Virus record (IMG/VR): IMGVR_UViG_2778261447_000007
Location: 1 to 8,953 of that record
DNA from: a virus
Lineage: Duplodnaviria > Heunggongvirae > Uroviricota > Caudoviricetes
Strand: one strand, 5' to 3'
Length of the DNA: 8,953 nucleotides
Part shown: one piece after another, positions 3,265 to 6,643 of the stretch
How the letters are laid out: every line of letters starts with the position of its first letter
Numbering within the stretch: the stretch's first letter is position 1
Program-made: the position numbers and the translations under genes
Notes under the pieces: generated by a model
What the model saw: only the letters and a program-made list of their open reading frames with translations
Told to the model about the DNA's origin: nothing
The model's database searches: none

Positions 3265-3690
3265 TCAATGCACAGCCACAGCATTTCCGGCCGGGCCACC
3301 ACGGTTGATCTGGTTGAAGCCAGCTATTGCCACCGCGACAAAATCATCAGCGTCTCTCACCAGTCGTTCCCGCATCTCCACCAGCTCCCGAAAATAAGCT
3401 GAACTGTGGCTGCGCATTCTGGCCACCAGCAAAGGTGGCATTGCCTTTTCGATCGCTGGTAACAACGCCTGAATTTTTTCAACTGCATCAGGGGTGTCTT
3501 TCTCTACCCAGCGGAAAATTTTCTGGGTATTACGCGCCAGGGCTTCAGGGTGGCTGTCGTCGTACAGTTCCGGGAACGTCATACCCAGTTCGAAATACGC
3601 TTTGGTAATTTTCGCAGCCGGTACTTTTTCGCCGTCCGGATGCGCCCAGGCATTCATCGCCATGCGGATGTGCTCATGTTTGATTTTCAT
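3265..3690 (-). CDS. ydaT: YdaT-like protein (141 aa; cII-analogue position in Rac-like prophages)
   Basis: ATG at 3690 overlaps the stop of the upstream Cro-like gene (ATGA). Position and size fit the second gene of the Rac ydaS-ydaT operon; N-terminus 'MKIKHEHI...' recalled as YdaT-like. Not verified by alignment. Confidence 0.65.
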   Translation of the reverse strand: MKIKHEHIRMAMNAWAHPDGEKVPAAKITKAYFELGMTFPELYDDSHPEALARNTQKIFRWVEKDTPDAVEKIQALLPAIEKAMPPLLVARMRSHSSAYFRELVEMRERLVRDADDFVAVAIAGFNQINRGGPAGNAVAVH

Positions 3691-3974
3691 GAATCAACCC
3701 CATCAACTTTTTTGGTGTTAAGCTCATATTTATGACTTGAAGGGGGCGTAATTCCGGTGTATTCCGGCCATATAAGATCCCAGTCATTCGGCCTCAACTC
3801 TCTTCTTGTAACATGCCCTGCAGTTTCTGCTTCTATCATTAACGCACGAACAGGAGACACTGGTGAACTGCCAGATGCCATTTGAGACAAGAAGGACGGA
3901 GACACACCAAGGTTGGCAGCAAATTTTTTTGCTTCTCCAGTTTTTAATGATTTGATGAATTCCTTTAGAGTCAT
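3687..3974 (-). CDS. ydaS: Cro-like HTH regulator (YdaS-like), first gene of leftward early operon
   Basis: ATG at 3974 (M12 of the 3687..4007 ORF, whose upstream start is TTG). 'LKEFIKSLKTGEAKKFAANLGVSPSFLSQMASG' is an XRE/Cro-type HTH. Divergent from the repressor gene. Confidence 0.7.
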   Translation of the reverse strand: MTLKEFIKSLKTGEAKKFAANLGVSPSFLSQMASGSSPVSPVRALMIEAETAGHVTRRELRPNDWDLIWPEYTGITPPSSHKYELNTKKVDGVDS

Positions 3975-4010
3975 GATTTCGATCTCAACATACTTTAGTG
4001 CAAGCAAAAG

Positions 4011-4038
4011 TTTATACGTAACTAAATAAACCAGTCAA
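4011..4038 (-). promoter_or_regulatory. pR-like sigma70 promoter for the leftward ydaS-ydaT-replication operon (TTGACT-N16-TATAAA on minus strand)
   Basis: Minus strand reads TTGACT (plus 4033-4038), 16-nt spacer, TATAAA (plus 4011-4016), about 35 nt upstream of the ydaS ATG. Near-identical to the promoter at 5463-5490. Confidence 0.6.
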
Positions 4039-4077
4039 GTATTTGCTTATTTCGCAATTACTAAAGATAATGCATGT

Positions 4078-4449
4078 ATGGAAACAAGAGAGATTCGGCG
4101 TTTACGCCTCAAAGAGTGGTTCAAAGACAGAACTTTGCCACCCAAAGAGAAAAGTTACTTATCTCAGTTAATGAGCGGTAAGGCTACGTTTGGCGAAAAA
4201 GCAGCTAGACGTATTGAACAAACATATGGGATGCCAGGGGGTTATCTTGATATTGAGCCAGAAGACATAACAGAGTCTCCATCATCAAGAGCTATAGCAT
4301 TAACCCCTAACCAGCTGGAATTGCTACAAATATTTAGTGCATTTCCTGATAATGAACAGCAAGAGATCATAAAAGAACTAAGAAACAAAAAAGAAGCAAT
4401 GGAAGATTTTGTCGCACGTTGGTTGGCGCAGCAAGGTCGCCGCGCCTGA
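4078..4449 (+). CDS. Prophage repressor candidate (RacR-like/cI-analogue HTH regulator, 123 aa)
   Basis: Divergent from the Cro-like gene across about 100 bp. HTH-like 'KSYLSQLMSGKATFGEKAARRIEQTYGMPGGYLD'. C-terminal module is homologous to the downstream PaaR-like protein. No Shine-Dalgarno; a GATAAT -10 sits 8 nt upstream of the ATG. Confidence 0.65.
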   Translation: METREIRRLRLKEWFKDRTLPPKEKSYLSQLMSGKATFGEKAARRIEQTYGMPGGYLDIEPEDITESPSSRAIALTPNQLELLQIFSAFPDNEQQEIIKELRNKKEAMEDFVARWLAQQGRRA

Positions 4450-4483
4450 TGGGAAGCATACTCTTAAAAACAAGATATATCAG

Positions 4484-4882
4484 ATGGGTGTACTCGAAAT
4501 TAGTGCTCTTAGAATTAGGAAGCTTTTGTTGGTAACAGGCTGGAGCCAGGCAGAACTTGCGCGCAGAATTGGCATTACTCAACAATCCGTTCAAAGATGG
4601 GTTTGTGGTATCTCAAGCCCTACAGCAGCTAATCTAGATAAACTATCTGAAGCAACAGGATATCCTCAGTATTGGTTCTTCTTACCGTTAAATGAAGAAA
4701 AAAATGACAGAATACAAGATATAATAAAAATAACTCCTAGGCAAAAGGAGCTACTTCAAACATTTGAGGCATTTCCAGAGGAAGATCAAGAGCAAATGCT
4801 TCAGGAGATGAAAGACAAAAAAGAGTTAATGGATCGCACAATTGAAAGATGGCTCGCTGCCCGGAAAGGGCATCGGGCATAA
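4484..4882 (+). CDS. paaR: PaaR-like HTH transcriptional regulator of a three-component ParE toxin-antitoxin system (paralogue of the upstream repressor)
   Basis: ATG at 4484 preferred over the TTG at 4409, which would overlap the upstream gene by 41 nt. XRE-type HTH 'WSQAELARRIGITQQSVQRW'. C-terminus 'ITPRQKELLQTFEAFPEEDQEQ...ERWLA' aligns with 'LTPNQLELLQIFSAFPDNEQQE...ARWLA' of the 4078..4449 product. Directly upstream of the antitoxin and toxin genes. Confidence 0.6.
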   Translation: MGVLEISALRIRKLLLVTGWSQAELARRIGITQQSVQRWVCGISSPTAANLDKLSEATGYPQYWFFLPLNEEKNDRIQDIIKITPRQKELLQTFEAFPEEDQEQMLQEMKDKKELMDRTIERWLAARKGHRA

Positions 4883-4911
4883 TGACCACCATACACAGAC
4901 GGAGGTGTGCC

Positions 4912-5103
4912 ATGAATACGGCCCTTTCACCAATGGTTTCTGAGTTTGAAACTATTGAACAAGAAAACAGTTACAACGAATGGCTGCGAGCCAAAGTAGC
5001 TGCAAGCCTTGCAGATCCGCGCCCAGCAATTCCCCATGACGAAGTTGAGCGCAGAATGGCAGAACGCTTTGCTAAAATACGCAAGGAACGGAGTGAACAG
5101 TAA
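4912..5103 (+). CDS. paaA: PaaA-like antitoxin (63 aa) partnered with ParE
   Basis: ATG at 4912 with GGAGG Shine-Dalgarno 6 nt upstream; TAA stop abuts the parE ATG. 'MNTALSPMVSEFETIEQENSYNEWLRAKVA...' matches the PaaA2 antitoxin of E. coli O157 paaR2-paaA2-parE2 as recalled. Confidence 0.7.
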   Translation: MNTALSPMVSEFETIEQENSYNEWLRAKVAASLADPRPAIPHDEVERRMAERFAKIRKERSEQ

Positions 5104-5388
5104 ATGTTACCTGTGTTATGGCTTGAAAGCGCAGATACCGACCTGGATGATATAACTAGTTACATTGCTCGTTTCGACATAGATGCGGCAGAACGCTTAT
5201 GGCAGCGATTAAGGGGGTGTGTGCTGCCATTATCCGAACATCCGTATTTATACCCCCCAAGCGACAGAGTGCCAGGCTTACGTGAGATTGTGGCTCACCC
5301 CAATTATATAATTCTGTACCGCGTGACAACCTCAAGTATTGAAATAGTAAACGTAGTCCATACCCGCCGACAGTTCCCTGTAACATAA
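5104..5388 (+). CDS. parE: ParE/RelE-superfamily toxin (ParE-like, 94 aa)
   Basis: Immediately follows the antitoxin stop. Size and sequence character ('LWLESADTDLDDITSYIARFD...IVAHPNYIILYRV') typical of ParE toxins. Confidence 0.8.
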   Translation: MLPVLWLESADTDLDDITSYIARFDIDAAERLWQRLRGCVLPLSEHPYLYPPSDRVPGLREIVAHPNYIILYRVTTSSIEIVNVVHTRRQFPVT

Positions 5389-5413
5389 CCCTCTGCCCAT
5401 CAACACAGCCTTA

Positions 5414-5441
5414 AACACTCTCAAAGAGAGTGTTATTTTTT
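5414..5441 (+). terminator. Rho-independent terminator ending the repressor/toxin-antitoxin transcription unit
   Basis: Perfect 9-bp stem AACACTCTC (5414-5422) / GAGAGTGTT (5426-5434), 3-nt loop, followed by A then T6 (5436-5441); 26 nt after the parE stop. Confidence 0.85.
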
Positions 5442-5462
5442 ACTGTTTAGTTAAGTTGTAGA

Positions 5463-5490
5463 TTGACTGTTAAGTTTATTTTTGTATAAA
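5463..5490 (+). promoter_or_regulatory. pL-like sigma70 early promoter (TTGACT-N16-TATAAA) directed toward the 72-aa ORF and RecE-like gene
   Basis: TTGACT 5463-5468, 16-nt spacer, TATAAA 5485-5490. Flanked by GTTAAGTT direct repeats (5450-5457, 5469-5476) and a TTTAGT motif shared with the pR-like region. Confidence 0.55.
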
Positions 5491-5678
5491 CTAATTTCAC
5501 CAACCCACCCCGCCCCACAGAACGCAGGGCAATACTTCGAGTTACCAGGCAGTGGTCAGGGGTTAAGTAGCCAGCCCGAGGCGTATGAACATGACGGCAG
5601 GGTTTAACTTTAACTATGCAGCAGGTTTTTGTTCCGCTACCCCGGCGTTAAGGGGAAACAGCACTGAGAGAAATCAGT

Positions 5679-5897: not shown

Positions 5898-6248
5898 TAG
5901 CTAACCAACGAAGCTAAGGTTGGTAATTAAGGAGTTCTCCACGGGTAAGGTGGAGTACGTGCGCCGGACACGGGTGAGCATCCGGCACTGACAGTTTACT
6001 GAAAGGATATTTCCCTGAAAAGTCAGACCATAACGCGAAAGCGCACGGCGAGGTAGCTGGTTCATAGATAGTCTGTCGTTAAATTTTCGTCGACCGTGCG
6101 CTTCCGGTTGTGGCACTCCGCGAAATGGCGCGGCGTAATCATGGCGGGGTACCCTTCCCCTTGAGGACACCGGGTTGTCAGGCTGACCATGCGCCTGAGT
6201 GACAACCCCGCTGCAACGCCCTCTGTTATCAATTTTCTGGTGACGTTT

Positions 6249-6291
6249 GGCGGTATCAGTTTTACTCCGTGACTGCTCTGCCGCCCTTTTT
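6249..6291 (+). terminator. Possible intrinsic terminator (GGCGG...CCGCC stem then T5), weak
   Basis: GGCGG 6249-6253 pairs with CCGCC 6281-6285, followed by C and T5 (6287-6291). Loop is long (27 nt, with an internal CAGT/ACTG stem), so non-canonical. Confidence 0.3.
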
Positions 6292-6460: not shown

Positions 6461-6643
6461 ATGGAAACGTTATTACCAAACGTCAATACGTCTGAAGGTT
6501 GTTTTGAAATTGGTGTCAGAATCAGTAACCCTGTATTTACTGAAGATGCCATTAATAAGAGAAAACACGAACGGGAGCTATTAAATCAAATATGCATTGT
6601 TTCAATGCTGGCCCGTTTACGCCTGATGCAAAAAGGACGCTGA
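6461..6643 (+). CDS. Hypothetical small protein (60 aa)
   Basis: ATG at 6461, 17 nt after the right inverted-repeat arm, with AGGA upstream. Stop is 2 nt before the next ORF start. No family recognised. Confidence 0.4.
   Translation: METLLPNVNTSEGCFEIGVRISNPVFTEDAINKRKHERELLNQICIVSMLARLRLMQKGR

Follow-up and report, generated by a model that had tools for sequence, protein, structure and literature searches.

Putative PaaR2-type and PaaR1-lineage repressor genes in tandem ahead of paaA-parE in a cryptic lambdoid prophage

The DNA studied here is a stretch of 8,953 nucleotides from a Caudoviricetes record in IMG/VR (IMGVR_UViG_2778261447_000007), called the window below, and the question concerns two adjacent genes in it, ORF1 and ORF2, whose products differ in their N-terminal helix-turn-helix (HTH) regions and resemble each other at their C-terminal ends. 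The window genes around the pair make up the immunity region belonging to a cryptic lambdoid (lambda-like) prophage of Escherichia coli. Over positions 3600-5600 the identity with E. coli GF60 is 99.9%, and in that genome RefSeq annotates the same six genes, ORF1 and ORF2 identically. Both reading frames lie where the original prediction had put them (4078-4449 and 4484-4882), and the peptide strings it quoted are correct. By sequence comparison ORF1 is assigned as an orthologue of PaaR2 and ORF2 as an XRE repressor of PaaR1 lineage, and we regard these two identities as almost certain. On this assignment the window carries both known PaaR types in tandem, ahead of paaA-parE.

The tandem genes and their neighbours

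Two loci of an O157:H7-type genome serve for comparison. In the CP-933P-like locus ydaT-ydaS is divergent from the gene of a 123-amino-acid (aa) protein followed by paaA2-parE2, and in the CP-933M-like locus ydaT-ydaS is divergent from the gene of a 133-aa HTH protein followed by paaA1-parE1. The paaR2-paaA2-parE2 locus of CP-933P is said to have been described by Hallez in 2010. ORF1 has the same length as PaaR2 of the CP-933P-like locus (123 aa) and is 75% identical to it, with 84% in the N-terminal domain and 70% in the C-terminal tail. Its residues 1-62 match the PDB entries 7nkv, 8c3k and 8c3l at ~90% identity (phmmer E=4.3e-31 to 7nkv), and Foldseek aligns ORF1 with 8c3k at a TM score of 0.92; these entries are named 'PaaR2 N-terminal domain', and ORF2 has no match to them. 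AlphaFold2 predicts helices at residues 3-14, 25-33 and 40-49 of ORF1, a disordered linker at 63-72, and tail helices at 77-87 and 91-121. The gene sits at the cI position, its start 103 base pairs (bp) from the divergent ydaS.

In CP-933P of O157:H7, PaaR2 is a CI-like repressor and also the regulator of paaA2-parE2; its mRNA is leaderless, the protein assembles into octamers, and its sites of action are the operator region OR and OL with its promoter PL (Jurenas 2021, PMC8630535). The original prediction had split these tasks, labelling one product of the pair a prophage repressor and the other a toxin-antitoxin regulator. Such labels do not fit, because ORF1 is the apparent orthologue of PaaR2, which does both, and ORF2 is a paralogue of PaaR1 lineage. 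ORF2 consists of an XRE/HTH_3 domain, a conserved linker and a PaaR tail. In an end-to-end alignment with 24 family members it retains each of the 32 columns that are invariant across the 25 sequences. Its identity to PaaR1 of the CP-933M-like locus is 62% (N-terminal domain 63%, tail 71%), and there is a weak match to the repressor of phage 434.

Judged by the identities of paaA, parE and ydaS, the genes flanking the pair are of CP-933P type. YdaS is 65% identical to the CP-933P-like YdaS and 22% to the CP-933M-like one, PaaA is 94% identical to PaaA2 (CP-933P) and 65% to PaaA1 (CP-933M), and for ParE the values are 99% with ParE2, taken over the aligned part, and 68% with ParE1. As listed in Table 1, an intrinsic terminator ends the operon, with no terminator in it before 5414. 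The gaps are short, 34 bp between ORF1 and ORF2 and 29 bp between ORF2 and paaA. The arrangement is that of a regulator-PaaA-ParE operon, but with four genes, not three. It is a tandem, four-gene form of the known paaR-paaA-parE system, here set within a CI/Cro/CII-like switch. In this switch ydaT-ydaS would run leftward from the promoter PR, ORF1-ORF2-paaA-parE would run rightward from PRM to the terminator, and the PL-like promoter and OL would lie beyond.

Table 1. Features of the immunity region around ORF1 and ORF2, in window coordinates
Feature	Position	Strand	Remark
ydaT (CII analogue)	3265..3690	-	Pfam YdaT_toxin E=6.8e-10; 86-90% identical to YdaT of CP-933P-like and CP-933M-like loci
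Putative YdaT operator (OM-type) TTGATTTTCATGAATCAA	3680..3697	.	ydaS/ydaT junction; exact TTGATTN6AATCAA match
ydaS (Cro analogue), CP-933P type	3687..3974	-	Pfam YdaS_toxin E=6.5e-10
OR, divergent control region, 103 bp	3975..4077	.	TTTAGT repeats of PaaR2/YdaS type; right half aligns with CP-933P OR
PR-like promoter TTGACT-18-TAAACT, driving ydaS-ydaT	4009..4038	-	Consensus scan
PRM-like promoter TTGCTT-17-GATAAT	4043..4071	+	-10 ends 6 nucleotides before ORF1 ATG
ORF1, putative PaaR2 orthologue (CI analogue), 123 aa	4078..4449	+	
ORF1 C-terminal module (helix-loop-long helix)	4294..4446	+	
ORF2, putative PaaR1-lineage XRE repressor, 132 aa	4484..4882	+	
ORF2 C-terminal module	4724..4879	+	97 bits against tail profile
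Recombination breakpoint zone in tail-coding part of ORF2	4785..4830	.	Sliding comparison
paaA antitoxin (type 2)	4912..5103	+	Pfam PaaA2 E=1.1e-20
parE toxin (type 2)	5104..5388	+	Pfam ParE_toxin E=2.5e-16
Intrinsic terminator ending ORF1-ORF2-paaA-parE operon	5414..5443	+	Nine-pair stem, then T run
OL/PL, with PaaR2-type repeats	5440..5495	+	PL-like promoter TTGACT-18-TAAACT at 5463-5492, just past parE terminator

Between the stop codon of ORF2 and the start of paaA there is a small palindrome, ACACAGACGGAGGTGT (ACAC-N8-GTGT, 4893-4908), of which the Shine-Dalgarno sequence of paaA, GGAGG, is a part. It is also found in a locus of a related third type (L005, 2847-2862). The palindrome might form a weak RNA hairpin with an effect on the translation of paaA, or it might be a degenerate operator.

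The shared C-terminal module and the origin of the pair

How similar are the two proteins? The original prediction held that they are about half identical in their C-terminal parts behind different N-terminal HTH regions, and both statements stand. BLASTP aligns residues 73-123 of ORF1 with residues 81-132 of ORF2 (25/52 identical, 48%; 40/52 positives; E=4e-15). The Smith-Waterman score of the pair is 136, while 2000 shuffles give 29 +/- 5 and at the highest 66, so that the similarity is significant (z=21.6); when only the two C-terminal segments are shuffled, z is 23. The N-terminal parts score 22 against 21 +/- 4 for shuffled sequences (z=0.2), and Pfam finds HTH_3 in ORF2 (E=1e-11) and none in ORF1. 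The tails are 48-49% identical, and the hydrophobic pattern is conserved (ELLQxFxAFP...M/I-L...M...RWLA). In the AlphaFold2 prediction the tail consists of a short helix that leads through a conserved F/L-P turn into a long helix, and a disordered linker joins it to the HTH domain; the confidence score pLDDT is ~93 when the full-length protein is modelled and 91 when the tail is modelled by itself.

Did the pair arise by duplication and divergence in place, as had been proposed? The tail of ORF1 is 70% identical to that of PaaR2 and the tail of ORF2 is 71% identical to that of PaaR1, while the two neighbours are only 49% identical. Since each tail is closer to its own lineage than to its neighbour, local duplication is not the explanation. 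Within-locus tail identity is 50-62% in four tandem loci (the window, L002, L008 and L012), and PaaR2-lineage tails compared with 24 stand-alone PaaR1-lineage tails give a mean of 51% and a range of 40-60%. Set against this general range between lineages, neighbouring tails show neither homogenisation nor special divergence.

The sliding comparison places a recombination breakpoint zone within the tail-coding part of ORF2 (Table 1). On its left side the best agreement of the window is with other tandem loci (82-98%). Onward through paaA-parE (to ~5280) the window is 91-98% identical to L005, in which a PaaR1-lineage protein is the sole repressor. By this comparison the tail-coding sequence is a crossover point for recombination between immunity regions, and it is highly probable that the tandem pair came from recombination rather than from duplication in place. 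Mosaic recombination would have set a PaaR2-type block of ydaS, OR and repressor before a PaaR1-type block of repressor, paaA and parE, and the pair would since have been kept by selection.

The arrangement is rare. Among 5,426 complete E. coli genomes, 17 cover at least 80% of the 2-kb query and 19 have ORF1 at 90% identity or more, while a PaaR2-type gene occurs in ~593 and a PaaR1-type gene in ~527 (60-80% nucleotide identity). All seven ORF1-type loci that we inspected are tandem (7/7). Among the isolated phages in INPHARED none has the tandem arrangement, and only phage Evi has a PaaR2-like gene. A scan of loci with the PaaR1 alignment gave four relevant loci (Rahnella, Klebsiella, Pectobacterium and Arsenophonus), each with a single tail-bearing repressor and no further tandem.

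There is a further question about the tail itself, whether it belongs to PaaR proteins only. A tail profile of 54 columns was searched against 1.84 billion representative proteins (E<=1e-3). It gave 169 clusters, with the tail at or near the C-terminus in nearly all of them and with proteins of ~110-250 aa. The N-terminal partner was HTH_3 in 73 and Phage_CI_repr in 12 of the 108 scanned; YdaS/P22-Cro-like or PaaR2-type N-terminal domains are further partners. Against the profile a phage-borne DicA-type repressor reaches 60.5 bits, while the Gifsy-1 repressor, which matches in the first helix and the LP motif, reaches 14.6 bits, and two of the matches we take to be C-terminal fragments of K-12 DicA. 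The PaaR2-type N-terminal domain is in turn found fused to Peptidase_S24 in LexA/CI-like proteins of 208-213 aa from Yersinia and other genera; neither ORF1 nor ORF2 matches Peptidase_S24 (PF00717). On the evidence of the profile, the tail is a portable module of short prophage repressors that lack S24 and would not be cleavable in the SOS response, namely PaaR1, PaaR2, DicA and in part the Gifsy repressors. Pfam has no model for it, and the tail-only model has no significant fold match in the PDB (best E=3). Against BFVD the same model gives weak matches, some of them named DicA, CI or XRE, which with TM <=0.75 and E >=0.2 are suggestive only. DicA and the Gifsy repressors are induced by antirepressors and not by RecA-mediated cleavage (PMC10448788). 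No antirepressor was identified for the PaaR proteins or in the window, a point on which only Pfam scans of the larger window ORFs bear and for which no aimed search was made.

What does the tail do? It is probably an oligomerisation module, which in PaaR2 would serve the assembly of dimers into octamers. Biophysical work on PaaR2 (Biophys J 2019; Acta Cryst F 2021) reportedly also describes such dimer and octamer assembly.

Two observations on tail architecture may be recorded here. One is that in L009 (E. coli Z1323CEC0012, 779-1149) ORF1 is frameshifted after the N-terminal domain, which leaves a tail-only ORF of 65-72 aa annotated as 'Cro/CI family transcriptional regulator'. Tail-only products (also P0078 and P0079) occur on at least 15 contigs, and, if expressed, they could act as dominant-negative oligomerisation partners. 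Another, akin in outcome to the tandem pair, is a 250-aa protein at the cI position of a metagenome-derived contig (P0137, L017 4001-4753), in which a lambda-CI-like HTH and a PaaR1-like HTH precede one PaaR tail; OR and OL of this locus have AATAAC-N3-GTTATT repeats and no ACA-N9-TGT sites.

Control of the switch and the role of ORF2

Which of the two proteins controls the early promoters? The original prediction held that this cannot be told from sequence, a view that was too cautious, as the operators are informative. There are six TTTAGT half-sites in the window, and four of them are in OR and OL (three in OR, one in OL), against 0.12 expected for both regions; the repeat consensus published for CP-933P is GTTTAGTAA. 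The hexamer pairs of the PR-like and PL-like promoters are identical, mirroring the CP-933P report. The hexamers of the PRM-like promoter and its 6-nucleotide spacing to the ATG are identical to those of the CP-933P-like locus. For CP-933P, transcription was mapped as beginning at the start codon of paaR2 (PMC8630535), implying by analogy that the ORF1 mRNA would be leaderless as well. The site at the ydaS/ydaT junction, placed as in CP-933P, matches the TTGATTN6AATCAA repeat defined for YdaT of CP-933P (PMC9986795).

The operators of the other lineage look different. In L004 and L013, whose sole repressor is a PaaR1-lineage protein, OR holds three 15-bp ACA-N9-TGT sites at a spacing of ~24-25 bp, and OL holds two more. 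The whole window has no ACA-N9-TGT site, and sites with one mismatch occur at the chance rate (38 found, 41.5 expected). Other spacings (ACA-N6..12-TGT) do not cluster in the intergenic DNA of the window. OL of six further tandem loci has the same PaaR2-type sequence, none with ACA-N9-TGT, and OR of the tandem loci is likewise free of such sites. With PaaR2-type repeats in OR and OL and no sites of the PaaR1 type, it is very probable that ORF1, together with YdaS and YdaT, operates the switch, the operators being read from the repeats and from the experiments on CP-933P, and that ORF2 lacks a cognate site in cis. The N-terminal domain of ORF1 would bind the TTTAGT-type repeats in OR and OL, and the tail would drive dimer-to-octamer assembly. 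A mixed control, in which OR is of PaaR2 type and OL of PaaR1 type so that both repressors are needed, was considered and rejected, as OL is of PaaR2 type in every tandem locus.

Then why is ORF2 retained? The ratio of non-synonymous to synonymous substitution rates (dN/dS) was obtained by comparing the window with three diverged tandem loci, for which dS is ~0.35-0.5. For ORF2 it is 0.22-0.26 overall and 0.11-0.16 in the DNA-binding domain, for ORF1 it is 0.06-0.09, and for paaA and parE it is 0.02-0.06. These values are clear signs of purifying selection on ORF2, which we read as a functional gene under somewhat relaxed constraint. Its frame is intact in six of the seven tandem loci. Among 5.8 billion proteins no stand-alone relative of its DNA-binding domain was found above ~70% identity, and this variant is confined to tandem loci.

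ORF2 would be co-transcribed with ORF1 and would act as a second, complete repressor, with an XRE/434-like HTH and a tail. We tentatively favour a role in trans, which would fit a DNA-binding domain that is complete and conserved and yet has no target in cis: ORF2 would be a second immunity repressor directed against superinfecting or co-resident lambdoid phages with ACA-N9-TGT operators. PaaR1 relatives occur in about one in ten E. coli genomes. A kindred and rather doubtful reading takes ORF2 as the captured repressor of another immunity class, by which the lysogen would be immune to two classes at once, or other prophages or host genes would be silenced; in a stronger version of it ORF2 also joins PaaR2-type oligomers through the common tail. 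As a joint explanation, the account with ORF1 as switch repressor, ORF2 as second repressor, a portable tail, a mosaic origin and a role in trans would be the best one, and we hold it to be moderately probable.

Several points weigh against this account and should be noticed. Of the two genes ORF2 is the faster-evolving one; it lacks a clear Shine-Dalgarno sequence, and in one tandem locus, L002, it carries an N-terminal frameshift. No phage or prophage was found that has the ORF2-type DNA-binding domain (>70% identity) as its primary repressor, and therefore no target for the proposed trans-immunity was identified. No second PaaR1-lineage gene is present in two tandem genomes, GF60 and RMDEC364, among the matches listed. 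The ACA-N9-TGT operator is defined from repeat patterns in related loci. DNA binding and oligomerisation of ORF1 and ORF2 are predicted here, not experimental, and the oligomerisation role of the tail is deduced, as the solved PaaR2 structure covers the N-terminal domain only.

Another possibility was raised by the original prediction, namely that ORF1 and ORF2 co-assemble through their tails into mixed dimers or octamers, and we consider it unlikely. ORF2 might then be a co-repressor, a dominant-negative subunit or a tether to further DNA sites, or a single antirepressor might inactivate both proteins. The conserved hydrophobic pattern of tails that are 48-49% identical would allow such contacts, but lineage-specific changes in hydrophobic tail positions (I vs T/A, L vs K/R, F/L vs T) could insulate the two assemblies. 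The genes would be co-transcribed and the proteins therefore made together, and PaaR2 is oligomeric (PMC8630535); still, the neighbouring tails are not homogenised, and in the window recombination has given ORF2 the tail of a stand-alone repressor in place of its former one, a swap that speaks against a co-adapted interface. Also in favour of mixed assembly are the protein P0137 of L017, a single chain at the cI position in which two HTH domains share one tail, and the control of DicA-class repressors by protein partners, the antirepressors (PMC10448788).

It would be more surprising if ORF2 were a relic, a former repressor left behind by the incoming PaaR2-type immunity block and now functionless, in slow decay in a cryptic prophage. 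The frameshift in L002 and a dN/dS above that of ORF1, paaA and parE would suit such a gene, but the frame is intact in the other six of the seven loci, ORF1 is itself broken in one of them (L009), and the dN/dS of 0.22-0.26 overall and 0.11-0.16 in the DNA-binding domain, at dS ~0.4, is clear purifying selection. Absence of cognate operators, a weak ribosome-binding site, the rarity of the arrangement (17-19/5,426 genomes) and a variable C-terminal end, with the tail running on into paaA in most tandem loci, are likewise what decay would leave; against this, ORF2 has retained every residue that is invariant in the 25 family members.

Least probable is the division of labour implied by the original labels, with ORF1 serving immunity only and ORF2-paaA-parE forming a self-contained toxin-antitoxin cassette with ORF2 as dedicated regulator. 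In its favour, the gene directly upstream of paaA-parE is ORF2, the place that PaaR1 and PaaR2 hold in O157:H7, the DNA between the middle of ORF2 and parE has 91-98% identity with a locus whose sole regulator is ORF2-like, and the ACAC-N8-GTGT palindrome stands between ORF2 and paaA. Against it, the regulator of single-regulator loci faces cro from the cI position, has OR operators beside it, and is an immunity repressor, not a private toxin-antitoxin regulator (PMC8630535). The gaps of 34 and 29 bp between ORF1 and paaA hold no promoter-like site and no ACA-N9-TGT, the palindrome shares bases with the Shine-Dalgarno sequence of paaA and is wrongly spaced, and it is ORF1, not ORF2, that is orthologous to the experimentally defined toxin-antitoxin regulator PaaR2.

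Some features of the ORF2 reading frame deserve mention in their own right. In most tandem loci (L008, L010, L011 and L002) ORF2 lacks the stop codon of the window and runs on for ~20 extra residues (...AAQQKVPRQDYQHLQDEVHHEHGPFTNGF), with a 32-nucleotide overlap with the paaA start that suggests translational coupling there; the window has the short ending of L005 type and the gap to paaA given above. Within ORF1 there is an A6 run at 4386-4400, where the ORF2 frame is open from 4382, and deletion of one A in AACAAAAAAGAAG joins ORF1 in frame with ORF2 to give a protein with two HTH domains. Such a fusion (P0070) and two similar frameshift variants (P0072 and P0073) are present in public short-read assemblies, and these may be real mutants or homopolymer sequencing errors. 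A programmed frameshift at the A6 run producing the fusion was considered and rejected, since in other tandem loci the ORF2 frame is closed 15-30 nucleotides upstream of its ATG.

The left operon and comparison with known systems

Downstream of the PL-like promoter the window has the small RNA DicF (6235-6286, plus strand; Rfam RF00039, 76.7 bits), the gene of the cell-division inhibitor DicB (6461-6643, plus strand; Pfam DicB, 1.5e-37), and then a DUF1482 gene. With dicF and dicB past this promoter, the left operon is therefore of the Qin dicBF type, though the repressor is PaaR2-like and not DicA. About 100 bp past the promoter (5500-5600; CCACCCCGCCCCACAGAACGCAGGGCAATACTTCGAGTTACC...GGTCAGGGGTTAAGTAGCCAGCCCGAGGCGTATGAACATGACGGCAGGG) are highly conserved across all immunity types (L002-L005, L008-L012), while the adjoining operators differ. 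This segment may be a nut-like or leader RNA element; Rfam at the gathering threshold finds no family in 5500-5600. Beyond ~6200 the motif positions suggest a difference from GF60 (L001), in which a Rha-family gene and kil take the place of dicF and dicB, so the window seems to come from a prophage that is differently mosaic from that of GF60.

What does the tandem locus add? PaaR2 with its toxin-antitoxin pair is a studied model of a bistable prophage switch. The tandem PaaR locus offers a natural test of whether the tail is the oligomerisation module, whether it is lineage-specific, and whether a prophage can hold a repressor for foreign operators. One uncurated C-terminal module links PaaR1 and PaaR2 to DicA and ~170 other repressor clusters, and it marks a crossover point for the mosaicism of immunity regions. 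Current understanding is thereby extended, not overturned.

Among known systems, the closest to ORF1 is PaaR2 of CP-933P. It shares the cI-like position facing ydaS-ydaT, the PRM hexamers, the leaderless spacing, the repeat type of OR and OL, and type-2 paaA-parE downstream. It differs in that paaR2 is followed directly by paaA2, while the window has a second repressor gene between them, and in the linker and ~30% of the tail residues. ORF2 is like PaaR1 of CP-933M and the related third type (L005/L006) in its XRE HTH, linker and tail and its length of 132-133 aa, and its distal tail is near-identical to that of the L005 type. However, a PaaR1-lineage protein is normally the sole repressor beside OR with three plus two ACA-N9-TGT sites, whereas ORF2 is second in its operon and without such sites. 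DicA of Qin and GfoR and GftR of Gifsy are also proteins of ~125-136 aa with an HTH, no S24 domain and the same C-terminal module (PMC10448788), but they have other DNA-binding domains and operators and are single genes, not tandem pairs. With lambda CI and LexA the likeness is a functional analogy, seen in the position in the immunity region, the leaderless PRM transcript, the control of OR and OL, and the octamers (PMC8630535). These proteins carry an S24 autocleavage domain, and in ORF1 and ORF2 a helix-loop-helix tail of ~50 aa stands in its place.

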